This document shows, in pieces, positions 504 to 21,386 of a stretch of DNA of 26,350 nucleotides. Position 1 is the stretch's first letter, and each line of letters begins with the position of its first letter. A program made the translations under genes and the position numbers. Source of the DNA: Candidatus Hadarchaeota archaeon (GTDB lineage: Archaea; Hadarchaeota; Hadarchaeia; Hadarchaeales; CAZCRN01); assembly GCA_964501125.1 (NCBI GenBank), contig CAZCRN010000001.1:1-26350 (forward strand). The letters run 5' to 3'. The notes beneath the pieces were generated by a model. The model saw only the letters and a list, made by a program, of their open reading frames with translations. It ran no database searches and was not told the DNA's origin.

Positions 504-582
504 GTGTACAACGAAATCACTATATTCTAAACGAAGCAATAAAGTTGGGGTCGTGGGGTAGCTTGGCCTATCCTTCTGGCTT

Positions 583-609
583 AAGATCGTTCTTCAATGA
601 TCTGCCAAA
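583..609 (+). other. tRNA-Pro intron 1 (27 nt, non-canonical position 33/34)
   Basis: BHB motif: central helix TGGC(577-580)/GCCA(604-607), bulges TT|A and AA|T, intron hairpin AGATC/GATCT. Confidence 0.85.
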
Positions 610-613
610 TGGG

Positions 614-632
614 ACGTAGGCCAACGCAAAAA
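614..632 (+). other. tRNA-Pro intron 2 (19 nt, canonical position 37/38)
   Basis: BHB motif formed after intron 1 removal: central helix TTTG/CAAA(627-630), bulges GG|A and AA|A, outer helix CGT/ACG. Confidence 0.85.
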
Positions 633-732
633 AGCCAGAGACTCGAGTTCAAATCTCGGCGACCCCACCATGCCAAAGTTTAAGTTTATAGGATAGGGCT
701 TTGAGGTTGTGACGAACCTTTGGGTGGGAAAC

Positions 733-2543: not shown

Positions 2544-3381
2544 TCCCACAGCGAGAAAAAAAATTCAAGAAATTTTGGCCGAAGACATAGGCTCAGGTGA
2601 TGTGACAACCGAAGCTCTTGTGCCAAGTAAAGTTACAGCCAAGGCTGAGATAATCGCCAAACAATCAGGAATACTGGCGGGGGTGGCCGAGGCCGCCGCA
2701 GCATTCGAGGAGATGGGTGTTCGAGCAAAGGCCCTCAAATCCGATGGGCAGCGAATCAAACCTGGCGACGTGATAATGCGGCTTGAGGGCCCGGCCCGGG
2801 GCATCCTTTCAGTCGAACGAGTGGCACTGAATTTATTGATGCGCATGAGCGGCATCGCTACGGCGACGCGCGAGATGATCGATCGGGCTAGGAAGAAAAA
2901 TCCAAAGGTGATTATAGCAGCCACACGAAAGACGGCCCCGCTTCTGACCTATTTTGATAAACGCGCGGTCAAGGTCGCGGGCGGGGAACCCCACCGGTAC
3001 AAACTCGACGAACAAGTTCTGATAAAGGACAATCACCTCAAACTGGCAGGTTCAGTTGCCCAAGCGGTTCGTCAAGCGCGCGAAGCTGCAAAGGGTAGGA
3101 AAATAGAAGTTGAAGTTAGTAAGCCCAAAGATGCATGTGAGGCCGTGAGAGCGGGCGCGGATGTTGTGATGCTTGACAACATGAGTCCAGCGGATATTGG
3201 TCGTACAATGAAGGCGCTTGAACAGGAGCATTTGCGAGGTCAGGTAACCTTAGAGGCCTCTGGTAGAATCGATCTCTCAAACGTTGAAGATTTTGCATCC
3301 ACGGGTGTTGATATGATCTCATCGAGTTACATGACCATGCGAGCCCCGGCGTTAGACATGAGTCTGGAGATTCGAAGATAG
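2536..3381 (+). CDS. nadC: Quinolinate phosphoribosyltransferase (nicotinate-nucleotide diphosphorylase, carboxylating)
   Basis: AEDIGSGDVTT, ERVALN, TRKT, HR..L...LIKDNH, EVEV, MLDNM and EASG motifs. GTG start after GGAGGG, overlapping the nadA stop. Confidence 0.93.
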   Translation: MIDPTARKKIQEILAEDIGSGDVTTEALVPSKVTAKAEIIAKQSGILAGVAEAAAAFEEMGVRAKALKSDGQRIKPGDVIMRLEGPARGILSVERVALNLLMRMSGIATATREMIDRARKKNPKVIIAATRKTAPLLTYFDKRAVKVAGGEPHRYKLDEQVLIKDNHLKLAGSVAQAVRQAREAAKGRKIEVEVSKPKDACEAVRAGADVVMLDNMSPADIGRTMKALEQEHLRGQVTLEASGRIDLSNVEDFASTGVDMISSSYMTMRAPALDMSLEIRR

Positions 3382-3383
3382 GC

Positions 3384-4511
3384 CTAGGCACCAACAACGC
3401 TGTAAGTTAGATCGCTAAGTCTCCTGATAGCTTCAAGCTTCTCCCTTTTGCCGATTTTCGCTTCCTGAACGGCAGCCTTCAATACTTCATGGGCCTCATC
3501 CATTGCCTTGCGGTCAACTGGAAACGGTGTCCCATCCTTAGAGCCGAACGCGAACGAAAATTTCACCGGATCCTGCCAGCTTGGTTTACATCCGTACATG
3601 AGTTCAGACAACAAAGCGAGCCCGCGCACGGTCGCCAGCCCGATGCCTTTGAAACTCAATAGTTCCTCAAAGTTCGCGGGTTTGAGTTCGTAGGCACGCT
3701 GCATGGCAGTCCAGTCAACTCGGCTTGGGAGGAGCTTGATGTAGGCTATCCTCTGGGAAGGTGGCCCGGGGAACCATTCCTCAAGCGTTCGTTGCCCCCT
3801 GATCTTTGCAGCCCTGAATATAGATCGAATGTGGCTCGGGGAGTGATCGCGAATCAAATCAGTCACAACCTTGCGGCATTCGGTACTTTGCTTAGCAGTC
3901 ATGTTTAAGACCCGATCGTGCCATTGGTCGCCCAAGATCGCGCTGTGAGGTTCATCGACGAAGCTTCGAACTTGGTCGGATAGCCAGTGATAGCGTCTGG
4001 CCGCGTGGATCTTTGGTCGCATCCCCTGCTGCACGACTGCCCACTTCCCCTCATCAGTCACGAATATCGTGTGGTGGTAAATCGGATAACCAGCTTGGAC
4101 TGCAGCGGTGTCAACCTTCGCCGCCATTCGGCTCGCGTAGCGCGCTCGATCTATTTGTTCGGCTGCGAGGTCGAGCTGCTGACCTACCGTCGCTAGCTTG
4201 GCAGGCACTTGTCTGCTCAGCTTGCCTTTTCCCCCGACAGCCGCGATGCCGTGCTTGGCGGGGTCAAGGGCCGAGCGAAGGACACCGCATAACACAGTGG
4301 TTGCCCCCGAGGTACACCACTCCCAACCCAGACATGCGGCTAGACTCTGGAACCAGAGGGGGTCGGAGATACGCGATAAAAAGACATCTGGCCCGTACTC
4401 GTCGATGAGCACGTCGCACACACCGCGCGATAGTTTGATCATGCGTTCGACTAGCCAGGGAGGTGCACGCGTTGCAGCCAAGCGCAATTCAACCGTCGCG
4501 ACCTTGCGCAT
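3384..4511 (-). CDS. DUF763 family protein (divergent)
   Basis: APPWLVERMIKL, SDPLWFQ, GGKG, AKVD, WAVVQQGM, ARRYHW and KDGTPFPV blocks match my recollection of DUF763. Start placed at ATG 4511 because the longer ORF runs into tRNA-Tyr. Confidence 0.85.
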   Translation of the reverse strand: MRKVATVELRLAATRAPPWLVERMIKLSRGVCDVLIDEYGPDVFLSRISDPLWFQSLAACLGWEWCTSGATTVLCGVLRSALDPAKHGIAAVGGKGKLSRQVPAKLATVGQQLDLAAEQIDRARYASRMAAKVDTAAVQAGYPIYHHTIFVTDEGKWAVVQQGMRPKIHAARRYHWLSDQVRSFVDEPHSAILGDQWHDRVLNMTAKQSTECRKVVTDLIRDHSPSHIRSIFRAAKIRGQRTLEEWFPGPPSQRIAYIKLLPSRVDWTAMQRAYELKPANFEELLSFKGIGLATVRGLALLSELMYGCKPSWQDPVKFSFAFGSKDGTPFPVDRKAMDEAHEVLKAAVQEAKIGKREKLEAIRRLSDLTYSVVGA

Positions 4512-4533
4512 CTGGACCCCAATCGATAATCGC

Positions 4534-4549
4534 GCTGAAAGTTTAAGAA
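4534..4549 (+). promoter_or_regulatory. Putative BRE+TATA promoter of the tRNA-Tyr/5S/tRNA-Asp cluster
   Basis: GCTGAAA-G-TTTAAGAA lies about 26-33 nt upstream of the tRNA-Tyr 5' end. Confidence 0.5.
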
Positions 4550-4574
4550 CCTGAAAGTCAGAAAATTGAACGGT

Positions 4575-4677
4575 CCCGCGGTAGCTCAATTTGGTAGAGC
4601 AGCCGGCTGTACGCATGTTTCCGACATGCGGGCTAAAGACCGGCGGGTTGGGGGTTCAAATCCCTCTCGCGGGACCA
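4575..4677 (+). tRNA. tRNA-Tyr(GTA) with a 26-nt intron inside the anticodon, CCA encoded
   Basis: C1:G72 acceptor CCCGCGG/TCGCGGG-A-CCA (archaeal Tyr identity); anticodon stem GCCGG/CCGGC; mature loop CT-GTA-GA; T arm GGGGG-TTCAAAT-CCCTC. Confidence 0.93.
4611..4636 (+). other. tRNA-Tyr intron (position 35/36)
   Basis: Bulges GT|A and AA|A; central helix GGCT/GGCT (two G-U pairs); intron hairpin CGCATG/CATGCG. Confidence 0.75.
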
Positions 4678-4719
4678 TCCACAGAACAAGTTTTTTACCG
4701 CGGAGATCTCAATTTATTT

Positions 4720-4845
4720 GGGTTGGCGGTCACAGCGGCGGGGAAACTCCGGCTCTCGTCCCGAACGCCGAAGATAAGCCCGCCAGCGATCTGGACTGTA
4801 CTCTTGTGCGAGAGCCAAGGGGAACTCCAGGACGCTGCCAACCCA
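4720..4845 (+). rRNA. rrf: 5S rRNA (ends approximate)
   Basis: Terminal helix GGGTTGGC/GCCAACCC; conserved CCGAAC...GAAG.TAAGCC and GTACT...GCGAG...GGGAAC segments; followed by a T-run. Confidence 0.95.
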
Positions 4846-4891
4846 CTTTTGTAGAAATGCATATTACGACAATTGACAAACCTAAATCGGT

Positions 4892-4969
4892 GCCCCGGTA
4901 GTGTAGTCGGGTCTATCATGCGGCCCTGTCGAGGCCGCGACTCGGGTTCAAATCCCGACCGGGGCGCCA
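4892..4969 (+). tRNA. tRNA-Asp(GTC), CCA encoded
   Basis: GCCCCGG/CCGGGGC-G-CCA; anticodon arm CGGCC-CT-GTC-GA-GGCCG; T arm TCGGG-TTCAAAT-CCCGA. Confidence 0.97.
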
Positions 4970-5061
4970 TTTTCGCTCGAAAGCCTTAAATCTGGAAATA
5001 ATAGACTTAATAAGCGAAAAGCATAAAAAGGGTAGTTTTCAGCTACGTTTTACCCTCGGAG

Positions 5062-5136
5062 GGGCCCGTGGCGCAGTCTGGTCAGCGCACCGGCCTTTTA
5101 AGCCGGGTGTCGGGGGTTCAAATCCCTCCGGGCCCG
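5062..5136 (+). tRNA. tRNA-Lys(TTT), CCA not encoded
   Basis: GGGCCCG/CGGGCCC-G; D stem GCGC/GCGC; anticodon arm CCGGC-CT-TTT-AA-GCCGG; T arm GGGGG-TTCAAAT-CCCTC. Confidence 0.96.
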
Positions 5137-5171: not shown

Positions 5172-5414
5172 TTGGCGAAAGAGTTCGATGTCCGGGAGCA
5201 CGTGCTCGTGCCCAAGCATGAGGTGCTAACGCAAGAGCAGGCACGCAAATTGCTTGAGAAATATAAGGTATTGCCACATCAGTTACCAGCAATCAAGGTC
5301 ACGGACCCGGCCGCAAAGGCGATAGGCGCCAAGGTCGGTGATATTTTAAAAATTACCCGGATCAGTCCAACAGCAGGCAAAGCCGTCGTTTACAGACAGG
5401 TGATCAGGGGCTAG
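5172..5414 (+). CDS. rpoH: RNA polymerase subunit H (Rpo5); start uncertain (5160-5172)
   Basis: HVLVPKHEVL...QLPAIKVTDP...GDILKITRISPTAGKAVVYRQV. TTG 5172 follows an SD-like GGTGG. Confidence 0.96.
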   Translation: MAKEFDVREHVLVPKHEVLTQEQARKLLEKYKVLPHQLPAIKVTDPAAKAIGAKVGDILKITRISPTAGKAVVYRQVIRG

Positions 5415-8400
5415 GTGGTGCAATTGCAAGAAGCGAAGTTGCAGGATACTTGGCCATTGCTTGGGGCTTTCTTCAAGGAGAAGGGTTTGGTTAGGCAACA
5501 CCTTGATTCCTATAACGAGTTCATCGAGCACCGACTACAGCAAATTGTTGACGAGATCGGTGGGATAGAGCTAGAAGTCGAATGGCTCGACGTCGTGTTC
5601 GGTCGCATCCGGATAGGTGAGCCATCGGTTAAGGAGGCCGATGGTTCGCGCCCCACCATATTGCCAGCGCAGGCACGGTTACGTAATCTCACGTACTCTG
5701 CGCCAATTTTCCTCGAAATGATTCCGGTAGTCCGAGGGCGCCAACGTGAACCGGTCGAGGTTTACATCGGCGAAATGCCAGTAATGTTGAAGTCAAAAAT
5801 TTGCGGGTTAAGCAAGATGAGCGATGAAGAGCTGATCGAAGCTGGCGAGGACCCACTCGACCCCGGTGGCTATTTCATAGTTAACGGTTCCGAGCGCGTG
5901 ATCGTTACACAGGAAGACCTCGCATCGAACCGTATCTTGATTGAACACGACGAACGTACGGCGCTAGAAGTTTCAAAAGTTTTCTCGACCCACCGTGGTT
6001 TTCGTGCACTGGTCATAGTCGAACGCAAAAAGGATGGTCTGGTGCGTGTCACGTTTCCAGCCGTACCTGGCCACGTGCCATTAGTGGTACTGATGCGGGC
6101 GCTTGGGCTCGAGAGCGACCGTGAAATCGTCGATGCGGTGTCGGATGATCCCGAGATCGTTAAGGAATTGTTCGAAAACCTGCAAGAGGCCATGGAGGTC
6201 AAGACAGGAGAGCAAGCGCTTGATTATATTGGCCGCAGAGTTGCGATCGGGCAGACGAGAGAGTACCGATTGCGCCGCGCTCAGGAGGTGCTGAGAAGGT
6301 ACCTGTCACCACATATTGGCTCACGCCCTGTGGATAACATCCATAAAGCCTATTACCTCGGCCGGATGGCCGAGCGAGCGATAGAGCTTGCACTTAGGCG
6401 TCGCGGTGTCGACGACAAAGACCACTACGTCAACAAGCGGCTGAAACTGGCCGGCGACTTGCTCGAGAGTATGTTTAGGTTAGCTTTCATCAACCTCATT
6501 CGCGACATCAAGTATCAGCTTGAACGTGCAGCTGCCCGCGGCCGAGAGCCGAACCTTCGGACCGCGGCACGTGCGGACGTGCTCACCGAGCGCATTCGAC
6601 ATGCCCTTGCAACAGGCAACTGGCCCGGCGGCAGGACTGGTGTAAGTCAGCTGCTGGATCGCACCAACTATATCGCCACTCTATCGCACTTACGCCGTGT
6701 CGTATCGCCCCTCAGTCGCAGTCAACCGCATTTCGAAGCTCGCGATTTGCACCCGACCCACTGGGGTAAGATCTGCCCATGTGAGACTCCAGAAGGCCCG
6801 AATTGTGGGCTGGTTAAAAATTTGTCATTAACAGTTGAAATCTCAACTGGCACCGACGAGGAAAAAGTCGAACGCGTTTTGTACAAATTAGGAGTCACGA
6901 AAATACAGAAAGGTAGCGAGCGCCGGGGCAAGGCAGGCGTTTACATCAACGGCCGCTTAATAGGGGTAACCGAAAACGGGCAAATGCTCGCCACCAAGCT
7001 CAGGGAACGTCGTCGCAAGGGTGCTGTTGATGAGCAGGTAAACGTCGCTTATAGCGCGGGCACGAACGAGGTAATGATAAATACAGACTCGGGTCGTGTG
7101 CGCAGATCACTGGTCGTGGTCGAGGGCGGAAAGCCGCTTTTGACGCAAGAGCATATCGAAAAAGTTAAGTCCGGCGAGCTGACCTGGCCCGATTTAATTC
7201 GGACTGGAGTGATTGAATACCTCGACGCTGAAGAGGAGGAGAATTCGTACATCGCAATTACAGAAGAGGGCCTAACACCTGAGCACACACATTTGGAGCT
7301 TAACCCAGGTTCGATTTTGGGCATATGCGCCGCGTTGATCCCATATGCCGAGCACAACCAATCGCCACGCAACACGTACGGCGCCAATATGGCCAAGCAG
7401 GTGCTGGGTATCCCAGCTACCAATTTCCAAGCTCGTCTTGACACCCGTGGACATTTCCTACACTTCCCGCAGACCTCCATGGTTTGGACGAAGGCCATGG
7501 ATGTGATTGGATTTGATCGTCGGCCAGCTGGGCAAAACTTCGTTGTCGCCATCATGTCATATGGAGGCTACAATATGGAAGACGCGCTCATCATCAACAA
7601 GAGCTCAATCGATCGCGGTCTCGGCCGTTCAACTTTCTTCAGACTCTATGAGGCCGAGGAAGGCCGTTACCCCGGTGGGCAACAGGACAAGTTCGAAATA
7701 CCGACAGAGGAAATCCGCGGATATGCAGATACGAGCCTCTATCGAAACCTTGGGGACGATGGCTTAGTTGAGATAGAATCCGAAGTGCGTGGCGAAGACA
7801 TCCTAATCGGGAAGACAAGTCCGCCGAGGTTCTTGGAAGAAGTCGATGAATTTGGCATAGCAGTTGAACATGGCCGCCGAGAGAGTTCGATAAGGGTTAG
7901 GCCTAGTGAGGGGGGTATAACTGACATGATTCTGCTTAGTGAGACGGTTGATGGCAATAGGCTGGCACGTGTTCGTGTGCGCGACTTGCGGATACCTGAA
8001 ATCGGTGACAAATTTGCATCTAGGCACGGTCAGAAAGGTGTCATAGGTATAGCGCTTGATGAGGCGGACATGCCTTTTACGGAAGACGGGATCGTACCCG
8101 ATCTAATAATCAATCCGCATGCTGTACCATCGCGCATGACAGTCGGGCAACTATTGGAGATGATTGCAGGCAAGGCCGGCGCGATGGCAGGGCAGCGAAT
8201 AGATGGCACGACGTTCAGCGGTACACCCGAACAGCAACTGCGTGAAATGCTGCGCAAACACGGCTTCAAGGATACTGGCAAGGAAATCATGTATAATGGA
8301 ATGACCGGGGAAATAATACAAGCGGACATTTTCATCGGCGTCTGTTACTACCAGAAGTTACACCACATGGTGGCAGATAAAATCCATGCCCGTGCCCGTG

Positions 8401-17209: not shown

Positions 17210-17237
17210 CCTAAATGAAGCGATTTGAGTGGGTCGA
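17206..17237 (+). repeat. Direct repeat copy 2 (intact archease 5' end; also supplies the HEPN stop codon)
   Basis: GTGACCTAAATGAAGCGATTTGAGTGGGTCGA, 1014 bp downstream of copy 1. Confidence 0.9.
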
Positions 17238-17643
17238 ACATCCCTCAGATGTGGGTTTTCGGGCCTATGGCCGCGACTTGGCAGAAGCATTCGAGAACGC
17301 TGCGGCCGCGCTCTTCGAGGTGATGGTCGATACGAGCAAGGTTGAGCCGCGAGAAGAAATCTCGATCGAGTTGGAAGCCGAAGACGAGGGGGCATTACTC
17401 TACGATTGGCTCGATCGGTTGCTCTATTTTCACGATGCCCGGGGGCTCGTGATGTCGAAGTTCAAAGTAGAGGAACTATCAAGTTCGGAACGGGGTTTCA
17501 AGCTCAAGGCAAAAGCTTGGGGCGAACGATTCGACGCCGCTCGCCATCCCGAGCGAACCGCCGTCAAGGCGATGACTTATCACATGATGCAGATCAAACG
17601 TGAGCGCGATCGCTGTTGGGTACAAGCGGTTGTAGATGTCTAA
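17215..17643 (+). CDS. Archease (RtcB activator)
   Basis: [11 protein letters not shown]...G..L.EAF.NAA.ALF and VKAMTYH..........QAVVDV motifs; adjacent to rtcB. Confidence 0.95.
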
Positions 17644-17702
17644 GGCAATCCTTTTCAATAAAATGGTTTATCTGCGCTGCCTATATTCTTGTTAGGGATG
17701 GT

Positions 17703-20525
17703 ATGGTTTGGACCGGAAAAATCAAGCAGATCGATGAAGTTCGTTGGGAAATCCCGCAGGACTATAAACGTGGGATGCGAGTGCCGGCCCGGATTTTTGC
17801 GGACAAAGCGCTGTTAGATGAGATACGTAGGGATCTAACACTTGAACAATCGGCAAATGTATCATTTCTGCAAGGCATTTACAAATACTCGATTACGCTT
17901 CCGGATGGGCATCAGGGTTACGGTTTTCCGATTGGAGGCGTTGCGGCGACCGATGCGGAGACTGGCGTTATAAGTCCGGGCGGGGTCGGCTACGACGTGA
18001 ACTGTTTGGTTCCCGGTACCCTCATCCTCACACGCGATGGGTATCGCAGACCGATAGGTGATTTGAAAAACTGTTGGGCCCATTCTAAGCTCACGGTTTT
18101 CAACCTAAACGATCATGAAGCGGAAAACGCTTCGATAATTCGATTCATAGAGTTTCCTCCAAATACAGAACTTCATCGTCTACGCACTGCCAATGGCAGA
18201 GAGATCACCCTCACAGGAGACCATCCAATTTTAACTCCTAGGGGCATGTGTTTAGCACGCAAAATCCATCCAGGTACCCCGGTAGCTGTTTATCCATTTG
18301 AAGGGGTAGATTACAATCCTCCGCCCGATGAAACGATACTTGAAGAGAGGGATTTTGAGCCATCTGTCGCTAAGGAATTAAAGAAGCGTGGTTTTCTACC
18401 CATTCACATGAACCACCCGAAAATCGGCACCTTAGCACGATTAGTCGGTTACATCCTTGGAGATGGCTGGTTTAACACTTGGGTAGAGAGACGTAAAGAT
18501 CGGAAAAGTCCGCGGCATAGATTGATAGTCGGTATCTCTGGCGAGATTGATGGTTTAGAGAAACTTAGGGAAGATATCCAGAGTCTTGGATTCAAGCCTT
18601 CCCGGATTTATTCGAAGAGTCGCAGGCAGACGATAAAAACACCATACGGGTGGTTCGAAACGAATTGTTCCGAAAATTGTATCCACATTTCATCGAAATC
18701 GCTCGCTACCTTGATTAACAAACTAGGTGTTCCTCTTGGCAGCAAAGTCTTCGCCGATTTTGAGGTTCCTTCTTGGATAAGAAGTGCTCCCTTATGGATT
18801 AAAAGAAACTTTCTGGCGGGTTTTTTCGGCGCGGAGCTGTCCAAACCATCAGTGGTCAAAGAGCATCCATACACCTTCAACGTACCGTCCATAATCATTT
18901 CAAAGAGAAGAAATATCAAGGATTCGGGTTACAAATTTTTAAATCAGATCCGCGCATTACTTGGTGAGTTCGGGATAAAAACTCTTGAAATTTATGAAAT
19001 TCCATTGACCAAGAGCACGGTGGGTCTCAGGCTCCCCATCTCAAAAAATGATGAGAATCTTTTGAGGCTTTGGTCTAAGATCAGTTACGAATTCAATGAA
19101 GAACGTCGCCTGCGCGCAGCTCTAGCGGCTGAGTACTTGCGCCTGAAGTTAAAACACAGAGGAATGTTGAAAGATAGGTCAAAGCCGATCGCCTTCCCAA
19201 CTTTTAATGAATATGTCGAAAAAACGAAAGCGGAGCTGGGTCGCTCGGGGTTGGTGTACGATATCGTTGTAAAGAAAGAGATTGTCCGCGGATTTAAAGG
19301 ATTTGTGTATGATTTCACGGTTAACCACGAGGATCACAACTTCGTTGCAGACTGCTTCGTCGTTTCAAACTGTGGCGTCCGCTTACTGCGCACGGACCTC
19401 AACCGCAAAGACATCGAGCCTAAGCTGCGCGAGCTGGTCGACGCACTTTTCAGAAACGTGCCCTCCGGGCTAGGCAGCAGAGGAAAAATGCGGCTGACCA
19501 TGGCACAGTTGGATGAAGTACTAGAACGCGGGGCTCGCTGGGCTGTCGAAAATGGCTTCGGCTGGCCCGAGGATCTCGAGCGGCTGGAGGAAGGAGGGGA
19601 GATGGCTGGCGCAGATGCCGCGCGGGTCAGCGTTCTAGCGAAGCAACGTGGTTTGCCGCAGCTCGGTAGCCTCGGCTCTGGGAATCACTTCCTCGAAATT
19701 CAATGCGTCGACAAGATCTTCGACCCTGATGTCGCACAAAAGTTTGGCCTAACGCACGAGGGGCAGGTCACGGTCATGATTCACTGTGGCTCTCGTGGTT
19801 TGGGCCACCAGGTTTGCTCCGATTATCTGCGCACGATGGAACATGCAGTTCGCCAATACAAAATCGAGTTGCCCGATCGGGAGCTTGTTAATGTTCCTGT
19901 CACTTCCCCTGAGGGTCAAGCTTACTTCTCGGCAATGGCCTGCGCCGCGAACTACGCCTGGGCAAATCGCCAGATGATCGTGCACTGGGTGCGCGAGTCT
20001 TTCGAACATGTGCTTGGACGGGATGCCGAGAGTTTGGGACTACACATAGTGTACGACGTTGCCCACAACATCGCAAAGCTCGAGGAGCACAAAATAGACG
20101 GCGAGCGGCGTAAGGTCTATGTTCACCGCAAAGGAAGTACGCGCGCTTTCCCGCCCGGTCACCCGGACGTGCCCTCCATATATCGCGAGGTCGGTCAACC
20201 CGTGTTGATCCCCGGGGATATGGGTACGGCCTCCTATGTTTTAGTTGGCACCGAGCAAGGGATGCGGGAGACCTTTGCCTCAACTGCCCATGGTTCTGGG
20301 CGCCACCTGAGCAGGACTGCCGCGCGAAAGCGATACTGGGGTCAGGACATCAAGCGCAGGCTCGAAGCTCAAGGGATTATCACCCGCTGCGCGAAGATCT
20401 CAGTGATGGCGGAGGAGTGTCCTGAGGCTTATAAGGACGTGGACAAGGTGGTAAAAGTTAGCCACGATGCAGGGATAGCCCGGATGGTCGCTCGGTTAAA
20501 GCCGATGGGAGTTGCTAAGGGTTAA
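17703..20525 (+). CDS. rtcB: RNA-splicing ligase RtcB precursor (940 aa; 484 aa after intein excision)
   Basis: [22 protein letters not shown]|[32 protein letters not shown] and HGSGR motifs. Start at ATG 17703 after GGGATGG. Confidence 0.97.
18003..19370 (+). mobile_element. Intein (456 aa) with LAGLIDADG homing endonuclease domain in RtcB
   Basis: Starts [10 protein letters not shown]; block [12 protein letters not shown]; block [10 protein letters not shown]; block [11 protein letters not shown]; ends [19 protein letters not shown]; +1 residue is Cys. Removal restores [16 protein letters not shown]. Confidence 0.96.
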
Positions 20526-20528
20526 GCG

Positions 20529-21386
20529 ATGATTCCGAAGTTACCCATTTCGCTTTCGGTGCTCTTACCTTCCTCACTTGTCGCCGATGCGCCGAGGCTG
20601 CGGGAGAAAACCGTGAAGGTTGGCTTGGTAGGTCGTGCCTTAGCAATCTTCCGCGTGCCAAGCGTTATCTTGTATAACGATGATGATCCAAAGGTTCCGG
20701 ATCAGGGCGCCGAAGTCAAGCTGATGGTTACCCTTCTGCGTTACATGGATACCCCGCAGTACCTGCGCCGATTACTTTTCCCTCGCGCTCGAGAACTTCG
20801 ATATGTGGGTCTCTTGCCGCCCCTACGCACGCCCCATCACCCACTTCAGGACGCCAAAACCAAGCCCGACGATTATCGCGAAGCAGTCGTTATCGAAGTT
20901 GGCAAAAAGGGAAGTTTGCTAGAGGTCGGTTTACCCCAAAAAGGCGCGACAAGTGAGAAGCTCAAGGTCGGCCAACGGCTAACGGTCAAGATAGGCGAAC
21001 GTTCTGGCAACCAAATAGCTGCGACACGTGTTGCACGAGCAGAAGTCCCAGAATACTGGGGGTTCGAGGTATCAGCCGCGAAAAGCCTTGTCGATGCCTT
21101 AAATGGGCTAAAAGCAGATTATGTAATTGGAACCTCGCGATACGGGCAAGATTTAAATGAAGCCATGCGAGGGATAGAGAAGAGCAAACCGAACCGAGTA
21201 GCGATCGTGTTCGGAGGCCCTTATGCGGGCCTCTACGAAATATGTGATCGCCAAGGCGTTGAGCCGGACAAGTTGTTCGACGTAATGGTGAACACGATTC
21301 CCGACCAAGGGACCGAGACGGTTCGGACCGAAGAGGCGCTCCTCGCAACGCTCGCGCTCCTAAACGCAATGGTCTGGAGGAAGTAA
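20529..21386 (+). CDS. SPOUT-family RNA methyltransferase (DUF171/C9orf114-like)
   Basis: ARALAIFRV, Y..TPQYLRR..F, VGLLPPLRTPHH and NTIPDQGTETVRTEEA motifs; conserved position upstream of rpl3 in archaea. Confidence 0.9.
   Translation: MIPKLPISLSVLLPSSLVADAPRLREKTVKVGLVGRALAIFRVPSVILYNDDDPKVPDQGAEVKLMVTLLRYMDTPQYLRRLLFPRARELRYVGLLPPLRTPHHPLQDAKTKPDDYREAVVIEVGKKGSLLEVGLPQKGATSEKLKVGQRLTVKIGERSGNQIAATRVARAEVPEYWGFEVSAAKSLVDALNGLKADYVIGTSRYGQDLNEAMRGIEKSKPNRVAIVFGGPYAGLYEICDRQGVEPDKLFDVMVNTIPDQGTETVRTEEALLATLALLNAMVWRK

Follow-up and report, generated by a model that had tools for sequence, protein, structure and literature searches.

A Hadarchaeota tRNA-Pro(UGG) gene with two introns, the second of which has a splicing motif predicted to form after removal of the first

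The window analyzed here (26,350 nt of DNA from a Hadarchaeota archaeon) carries on its forward strand a 124-nt tRNA-Pro(UGG) gene (positions 547–670) that is split by two introns and encodes its 3′ CCA (668–670). The Rfam tRNA model (RF00005) matched positions 547–667 with 38.4 bits (gathering score of 29); in this alignment the acceptor, D, and T arms were intact and a 49-nt insertion was placed in the anticodon loop, with 51 nt located between U33 and position 39, as compared to 5 nt in the finished loop. Exon 1 (547–582; tRNA positions 1–33) includes the acceptor 5′ strand, the D arm, the anticodon-stem 5′ strand (576–580), U32 (581), and U33 (582). This exon is collinear with the intronless genes found on six metagenome contigs (L074, L096, L107, L118, L147, and L148), and intronless relatives also provided the numbering of the anticodon stem (27–31/39–43, corresponding to 576–580/634–638). 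Exon 1 is followed by intron 1 (583–609; 27 nt) at the non-canonical position 33/34, by a micro-exon, UGGG (610–613), that supplies the anticodon (U34, G35, and G36) as well as G37, and by intron 2 (614–632; 19 nt) at the canonical position 37/38. The micro-exon was the same in all 12 two-intron genes among the matches listed (the window gene and 11 relatives described below). For intron 2, the sequence would allow the boundary to slide by one A; the register of its BHB motif sets it at 614–632. Exon 3 (633–670; positions 38–76), which was delimited with Rfam, the intronless relatives, and ARAGORN, contains A38, the anticodon-stem 3′ strand (634–638), a 4-nt variable region (AGAC, 639–642), the T arm (643–659), the acceptor 3′ strand (660–666), A73 (667), and the CCA. 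A TATA-like A/T-rich box (CTATATTCTAAA, 520–531, same strand), read from the sequence, is located 16–27 nt 5′ of the mature end and is a possible archaeal promoter; relatives of this gene also have A/T-rich boxes at similar distances.

The gene presents the features used to assign a tRNA-Pro, namely the anticodon UGG, G37, a class I body with the 4-nt variable region, G1–C72, and A73. When both introns were removed in silico, ARAGORN identified a tRNA-Pro(tgg) of 78 nt with a standard cloverleaf and a 7-nt anticodon loop; when only intron 1 was removed, it identified a Pro(tgg) with one canonical intron of 19 nt. The unspliced gene was not reported by ARAGORN in default mode, and the intron mode (-i) returned a Phe(aaa) with a 46-nt intron. 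A first-pass annotation had proposed a two-intron tRNA-Pro(TGG) at 547–670, and Rfam, the BHB scan, and ARAGORN on the spliced form bear this out base for base; its further proposal that intron 1, at 33/34, splits the anticodon from U33 agrees with a strict BHB found at 583–609. The same annotation expected automated tools to mis-call the gene, which is correct insofar as ARAGORN either misses it or calls it Phe(AAA), but the predicted Leu(AAG) call was not obtained.

Introns were located with a BHB scan whose register consists of a 4-bp helix (H) and a 3-nt bulge on each strand, each bulge being cut after its second base; a motif was considered strict if both flanking helices had at least 2 bp. 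In the precursor, the anticodon region contained a single strict BHB (in full, hBHBh′), which defines intron 1. The core of this motif (BHB-1, 577–607) has an H at 577–580/604–607 (T577–A607, G578–C606, G579–C605, and C580–G604), in which the GCCA segment of intron 1 (604–607) pairs with the anticodon-stem 5′ strand, and bulges at 581–583 and 608–610; its inner helix (584–591/596–603; 8 bp) represents a hairpin within intron 1. The outer helix has 3 bp (C576–G611, T575·G612, and T574·G613), one strand of which is formed by G611–G613 of the micro-exon and the other by 574–576; this helix is weak, with one G–C and two G·U pairs and with T574 taken from the D stem. For intron 2, no BHB could be identified in the precursor; two of the four linear H positions can pair, while A608 and A609 face A630 and A629. 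Once 583–609 had been removed in silico, a strict BHB for intron 2 (BHB-2) was found, with an H formed by T581–A630, T582–A629, T610–A628, and G611–C627, bulges at 612–614 and 631–633, a 3-bp inner helix (615–617/624–626), and the anticodon stem (576–580/634–638) as the outer helix, which was counted as 7 bp.

The H of BHB-2 is discontinuous in the precursor because a 27-nt insertion, intron 1, lies between its second and third pair: the four partners (T581, T582, T610, and G611) of its 3′ strand (CAAA, 627–630) are contiguous only after the first ligation. The pairs recovered here are identical to those for which the first-pass annotation had claimed continuity only upon intron 1 removal, with the refinement that T581–A630 and T582–A629 can in principle pair before splicing. 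As intron 1 interrupts the central helix of BHB-2 on its 5′ strand and is positioned 4 nt upstream of intron 2, it appears, in the structural model, to be nested in the motif of intron 2 by structure and not by sequence. An exhaustive search for strict excision paths of one or two steps leading to a 7-nt loop returned a single path, intron 1 followed by intron 2. In a shuffle control (n = 5000) in which the exons were fixed and the 51-nt insert was shuffled, a two-step path arose 3 times and a one-step path 38 times; the layout observed is far beyond chance. The model thus suggests that intron 1 would be spliced before intron 2. We also considered a C/D-box or other functional RNA in intron 1, a candidate that was rejected on inspection, as this intron has only 27 nt and is not conserved in sequence beyond its pairing segments.

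In the precursor ensemble, the H pairs of BHB-1 presented probabilities of 0.88–1.0 and the anticodon stem a probability of approximately 0.001; the minimum free energy fold of the precursor contained a shifted outer helix (571–574/611–614). An alternative to a structurally imposed order is that both introns are real and that the order merely reflects a preference in kinetics, with a permissive splicing endonuclease (EndA) that also cuts intron 2 in an alternative conformer and with both intermediates being produced. This alternative can draw on the two BHB-2 pairs that are available before splicing, and also on the small cost of an interrupted BHB-2 (i.e., a three-way junction with intron 1 looped out): at 37 °C and with a fixed tRNA body, this form lay just 2.6 kcal/mol above the BHB-1 conformer. 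However, the gap between these two conformers increased to 6.3 kcal/mol at 70 °C, and, without constraints, the ensemble probabilities of the BHB-2 pairs and of the anticodon stem were ≤0.001 at 37 °C and ≤0.02 at 80 °C, which argues against this alternative; in addition, we know of no report of an EndA that cuts a BHB with a hairpin-interrupted central helix. For the intermediate that follows removal of intron 1, the nearest-neighbour model favored a slipped continuous helix, formed through the A-run at 628–633, over BHB-2 by 4.9 kcal/mol, and enzyme binding must therefore select BHB-2.

To place this gene among its relatives, metagenome contigs were scanned for a D arm, TGGG, and a T loop separated by variable gaps, which yielded at least 120 loci; 28 listed genes with the acceptor stem GGGGTCG/CGACCCC were sorted by intron content. 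The two-intron layout was present in at least 11 more contigs (L004, L081, L086, L091, L098, L105, L123, L140, L141, L146, and L165), three of which are assignable to Hadarchaeota; among the matches listed, the relatives' intron 1 ranged from 16 to 28 nt and intron 2 from 17 to 19 nt. Three of the matches listed (L079, L084, and L073) carried the 37/38 intron alone, and at least 13 genes were intronless, including the six named above, which have the same anticodon arm as the window gene. None of the 28 genes listed with this acceptor stem carried the 33/34 intron alone.

Intron 2 showed the same structural dependence on intron 1 throughout the two-intron genes among the matches listed. In 12/12 of these genes, all four BHB-1 H pairs can form in the precursor, while the H of BHB-2 presented two of four pairs before, and four of four after, removal of intron 1. 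Over the 12 sequences listed, the central helix of BHB-1 was invariant, and the BHB-1 structure as a whole was 91.7% paired (alignment A1). The intron 1 hairpin showed three pairs changed on both sides (e.g., A–U to G–C in L105 and U–A to C–G in L165); its covariation score was reached by none of 500 shuffles, and sliding its partner columns reduced pairing from 92% to 23–53%. The H of BHB-2 and the anticodon stem were 100% paired in 12/12 sequences with wobble-compatible changes only, the H having a single change (U–A to U–G) across these sequences. In all 12 genes listed, intron 1 also ended in AA, a dinucleotide that is unable to extend the helix; this conservation likewise speaks against the kinetic alternative.

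Some motifs in the relatives were more relaxed than those of the window gene. The outer helix of BHB-1 was reduced to 1 bp in L098, L141, L165, and L105, where position 27 is A, and the inner helix of intron 2 was 1 bp in L004, L081, L086, L091, L140, and L146. These 1-bp helices suggest that the enzyme is not very strict and hint at an endonuclease that may tolerate relaxed BHB motifs, which is a point in favor of order being a kinetic preference.

Intronless relatives were used to assess the predicted boundaries. The spliced product of the two-intron gene in L081 was identical to the intronless gene in L096, and the L096 flanks were 85–92% identical to those of L081 on both sides; the spliced product of the window gene differed from the intronless gene in L074 by one base in the tRNA body (positions 1–73). 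These sequence comparisons with intronless relatives validate the intron boundaries. Similar flanks (83–93% identity) were found for loci that differ in intron content, both for two introns (L081 and L146) versus none (L096, L118, L147, and L148) and for two introns (L165) versus the 37/38 intron only (L079 and L084); the upstream flank of L165 was 90–93% identical to those of L084 and L079, the downstream flanks being unmatched. Intron content therefore turns over among close relatives. In L004, a Hadarchaeaceae MAG, the same gene is located 4.6 kb 5′ of nadX and has the same membrane-protein gene on its upstream side. Among the nadX-linked loci of 61 genomes (18 of them Hadarchaeota), adjacency of this tRNA-Pro to nadX was mostly not conserved, with an orthologue in L004 only.

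These comparisons also bear on the possibility that the locus represents a decaying or silent tRNA pseudogene from which the insertions are not productively removed. The modest Rfam score of 38.4 bits, the failure of ARAGORN to report the gene by default, and the intronless copies in related populations could all be taken to support such a reading. However, the layout is kept in 12 distinct sequences listed, with all BHB pairs retained and with compensatory changes, the mature cloverleaf is intact, the L081 product equals an intronless gene of a related locus, and the window gene encodes its CCA and is preceded by a TATA-like box; we consider a pseudogene very unlikely.

The genes neighboring the tRNA in the window include nadX, nadA, and nadC. 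The closest nadX homologues (70–79% identity) carry the names Hadesarchaea, Hadarchaeales, or Hadarchaeota, and RpoB is unsplit and 73–76% identical to Hadesarchaea contigs; NCBI places Hadarchaeota within the kingdom Methanobacteriati, and the earlier description of the host as belonging to a Euryarchaeota-like lineage was right. The window also encodes a ligation module on the forward strand, composed of an archease (17,215–17,643; 142 aa; Pfam PF01951, E = 7e-48), which is a cofactor of RtcB, and of an intein-containing RtcB tRNA-splicing ligase (17,616–20,525; 969 aa; NCBIfam NF038162, 1238 bits with a cut-off of 1150), with the end of the archease gene overlapping the start of the RtcB gene. 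The window that encodes this module (17,215–20,525) also carries a set of tRNA genes rich in introns; 3′ of RtcB, a PF02598 RNA methyltransferase gene (20,529–21,386) and then L3/L4/L2 ribosomal protein genes were found.

No EndA was found within the 26,350-nt window. In L098, an endA gene (3047–3598; 183 aa) adjoins trpS and lies 380 nt 3′ of the two-intron tRNA-Pro(UGG) gene (2616–2739); this location next to a substrate tRNA is probably a coincidence. The match was obtained with a M. jannaschii EndA query and was confirmed independently by Pfam and PDB searches. The L098 EndA contains both domains (PF02778 and PF01974), and residues 19–183 align without gaps to M. jannaschii EndA (PDB 1a79), with the Tyr/His/Lys catalytic motifs kept. 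Nearly all of its full-length homologues had 177–183 aa, with named sources that were nearly all Hadesarchaea or Hadarchaeum, and one EndA paralogue class was present among the homologue matches. The EndA of this lineage, which occurs throughout Hadarchaeota, is thus a single-unit protein of 179–183 aa that is predicted to be alpha4-like, as in M. jannaschii. The study by Kaneta et al. (2018, PMC5829648) classes the Hadesarchaea EndA as alpha4 and reports an L3 loop in it, whereas the L098 EndA has no insertion relative to the M. jannaschii enzyme. The same study ties the Hadesarchaea EndA to increased tRNA gene disruption, which would fit a permissive enzyme and hence a merely kinetic order.

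Taken with the conserved layout and the ligation module, we consider it likely that the Hadarchaeota tRNA-Pro(UGG) gene at 547–670 is functional and that its transcript undergoes two successive rounds of protein-catalyzed splicing; for this locus we infer cleavage, ligation, and the order in vivo. In the first round, 577–580 would pair with the GCCA of intron 1, and G35, G36, and G37 with positions 25–27, to form a BHB; EndA would then cut after U582 and A609, and RtcB together with archease would join U33 to U34. In the second round, U32, U33, U34, and G35, now contiguous, would pair with CAAA (627–630) atop the restored anticodon stem, forming a canonical 37/38 BHB that EndA would cut after G613 and A632, and RtcB would join G37 to A38. 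Because intron 2 depends on intron 1, the 4-nt micro-exon UGGG would never be released free, which is plausibly a benefit of this arrangement. The earlier claim that intron 1 must go first is supported by the structural dependence and by the agreement of 11 related genes; the word "enforced" in that claim, however, rests on the BHB model and on thermodynamics. Given the energetics and the conserved AA, a purely kinetic preference appears unlikely. The reading of the locus as a tRNA of another identity, Leu(AAG) or Phe(AAA), with a single 46-nt intron, to which the ARAGORN intron-mode call gives some backing, was rejected as having a negligible probability, since no one-step BHB path exists and the body is of the Pro type, is collinear with intronless Pro(UGG) genes, and has a 4-nt variable region and therefore is not that of a class II Leu tRNA.

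Pre-tRNAs with multiple introns are reportedly known from Crenarchaeota (Thermoproteales, e.g., Pyrobaculum calidifontis and Thermofilum pendens) through work by Sugahara et al. in 2007 (RNA 13:671) and 2008 (MBE 25:2709), and order-dependent maturation, by a serial "two cuts and one ligation" process in which introns are nested one inside the other, is said to have been described by Tocchini-Valentini et al. in 2009. The gene at 547–670 resembles these crenarchaeal pre-tRNAs in having several BHB introns, with a later BHB created by excision and ligation at an earlier one. It differs in that its host belongs to Hadarchaeota (kingdom Methanobacteriati), while the crenarchaeal cases are from TACK; in that EndA in Hadarchaeota is a single unit of 179–183 aa, as compared to an (alpha-beta)2 enzyme with a crenarchaeal loop in Crenarchaeota; and in that, unlike the reportedly nested crenarchaeal introns, its two introns are split by a 4-nt exon, with intron 1 interrupting the central helix of BHB-2. 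The dependence of a later BHB on removal of an earlier intron is stated in the tRNAscan-SE 2.0 paper, and it is because of such order dependence that this program iterates its BHB search (PMC8450103); the first-pass annotation thus overrated the novelty of the order dependence. The gene at 547–670 is a further example of the known order-dependent multi-intron tRNAs, with no new mechanism.

Two further systems provide comparisons outside Crenarchaeota. The pre-tRNA-Glu(UUC) of Methanopyrus kandleri (Kaneta et al., 2018, PMC5829648) has one intron at the canonical position and another in the D loop and is, like 547–670, a two-intron tRNA from a euryarchaeal lineage whose EndA is without crenarchaeal and ARMAN loops. 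In M. kandleri, however, the BHBs are independent and the canonical intron is removed first by cleavage efficiency (PMC5829648), whereas at 547–670 the non-canonical intron would go first because the canonical BHB is not yet present. In Cyanidioschyzon merolae, the several BHBs of a nuclear tRNA precursor are processed in an order that is reproducible (Soma et al., 2013, PMC3728597); in this eukaryote the BHBs fold independently and the order follows motif stability or position (PMC3728597), while at 547–670 the second motif would be created by prior ligation. For the phylum of the window itself, the study by Kaneta et al. (2018, PMC5829648) describes heavy tRNA gene disruption in Hadesarchaea and includes YNP_N21 in its survey (Figure 7), giving only proportions of disrupted tRNA genes for this genome; the main text of that paper does not describe the tRNA-Pro(UGG) layout, the order dependence, or the spread within the clade. 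In the literature searched, no paper besides Kaneta et al. (2018) was found that combines Hadesarchaea and tRNA introns.

What this locus adds is a host with a loop-less single-unit endonuclease, a 4-nt anticodon micro-exon, and a series of genes that differ in intron presence. Order-dependent multi-intron tRNAs are hereby extended from Thermoproteales to a phylum of Methanobacteriati with a single-unit endonuclease. In this genome, CCA and CCG codons may be read by the tRNA from this gene, and genes of this kind are missed or given a wrong identity without an iterative BHB search, which therefore distorts estimates of the tRNA complement and of completeness for Hadarchaeota MAGs. The comparative series, which among the matches listed comprises 12 two-intron genes, three single-intron genes, and several intronless genes, some with similar flanks, could serve for studies of the gain and loss of introns and of the substrates that an alpha4-type EndA accepts. 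A more speculative reading, which we put forward tentatively and hold to be possible though doubtful, is that intron 1 is a BHB intron recently gained or lost within the motif of a resident canonical intron, in a host whose EndA is a plain, single-unit, loop-less enzyme. The usual rule is that alpha4 enzymes cut strict canonical BHBs only; if the reading were true, loop-less alpha4 enzymes would handle non-canonical positions and relaxed motifs, and the clade would represent a natural series at similarly flanked loci (no intron, 37/38 intron only, and both introns) for tRNA intron gain and loss.

Other tRNA-Pro genes encountered in the scans presented different intron arrangements. The nadX locus of L010 contains a different gene, a tRNA-Pro(GGG) (5340–5435) with the same D arm and a single 16–17-nt intron at 32/33; this copy was not reported by Rfam at the gathering threshold. 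The 32/33 intron (16–17 nt), the 3′ part of which mimics the anticodon-stem 3′ strand, was also found in the Pro(GGG) genes of L092, L101, L112, L119, L121, L153, and L154; L010 and L119 belong to Hadarchaeota as judged by nadX. In the tRNA-Pro(GGG) genes of L129 and L151, the T arm harbors a further intron; the L106 gene has a T-arm intron only. A separate group with the acceptor strand GGGGCTG (L063–L180) includes many tRNA-Pro(UGG) genes without an encoded CCA; its introns are canonical (37/38; 19–24 nt) with strongly covarying GC hairpins, and many of its members come from soil metagenomes and probably represent an archaeal lineage other than Hadarchaeota. Upstream of the tRNA-Pro in L098, we identified a gene for a protein with LAGLIDADG_3 and HTH domains (161–1255) and a conserved ORF without a Pfam match (1834–2688) that overlaps the tRNA gene at its 5′ end. 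Similar upstream elements are found at the tRNA-Pro of L141, L086, L091, and L140, with a coding-like flank that is 73–79% conserved; this region may be a mobile or integrated element adjoining the tRNA gene.

Elsewhere in the window, a tRNA-Tyr(GUA) gene (4575–4677), located directly upstream of the 5S rRNA gene, has a 26-nt insertion. A single BHB register restores the expected loop CUGUAGA and places an intron (4611–4636) at 35/36, inside the anticodon; this BHB has an H at 4605–4608/4631–4634 (with two G·U pairs), an inner helix of 8 bp, and an outer helix that is almost absent. The tRNA-Tyr genes of L003 and L021 have only 12 nt at the insertion site. The 5S rRNA gene (4722–4843) has no 16S or 23S rRNA gene nearby and is flanked, within 4575–5136, by the tRNA-Tyr gene upstream and by tRNA-Asp and tRNA-Lys genes downstream; most of the related Hadarchaeota loci scanned likewise have a 5S rRNA gene with tRNA genes nearby on the downstream side of nadX. 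Between nadC and this tRNA/5S cluster, a gene on the reverse strand (3384–4616) encodes a DUF763 protein of 410 aa, homologues of which (42–53% identity) are present at 14 of the 18 nadX loci from Hadarchaeota.
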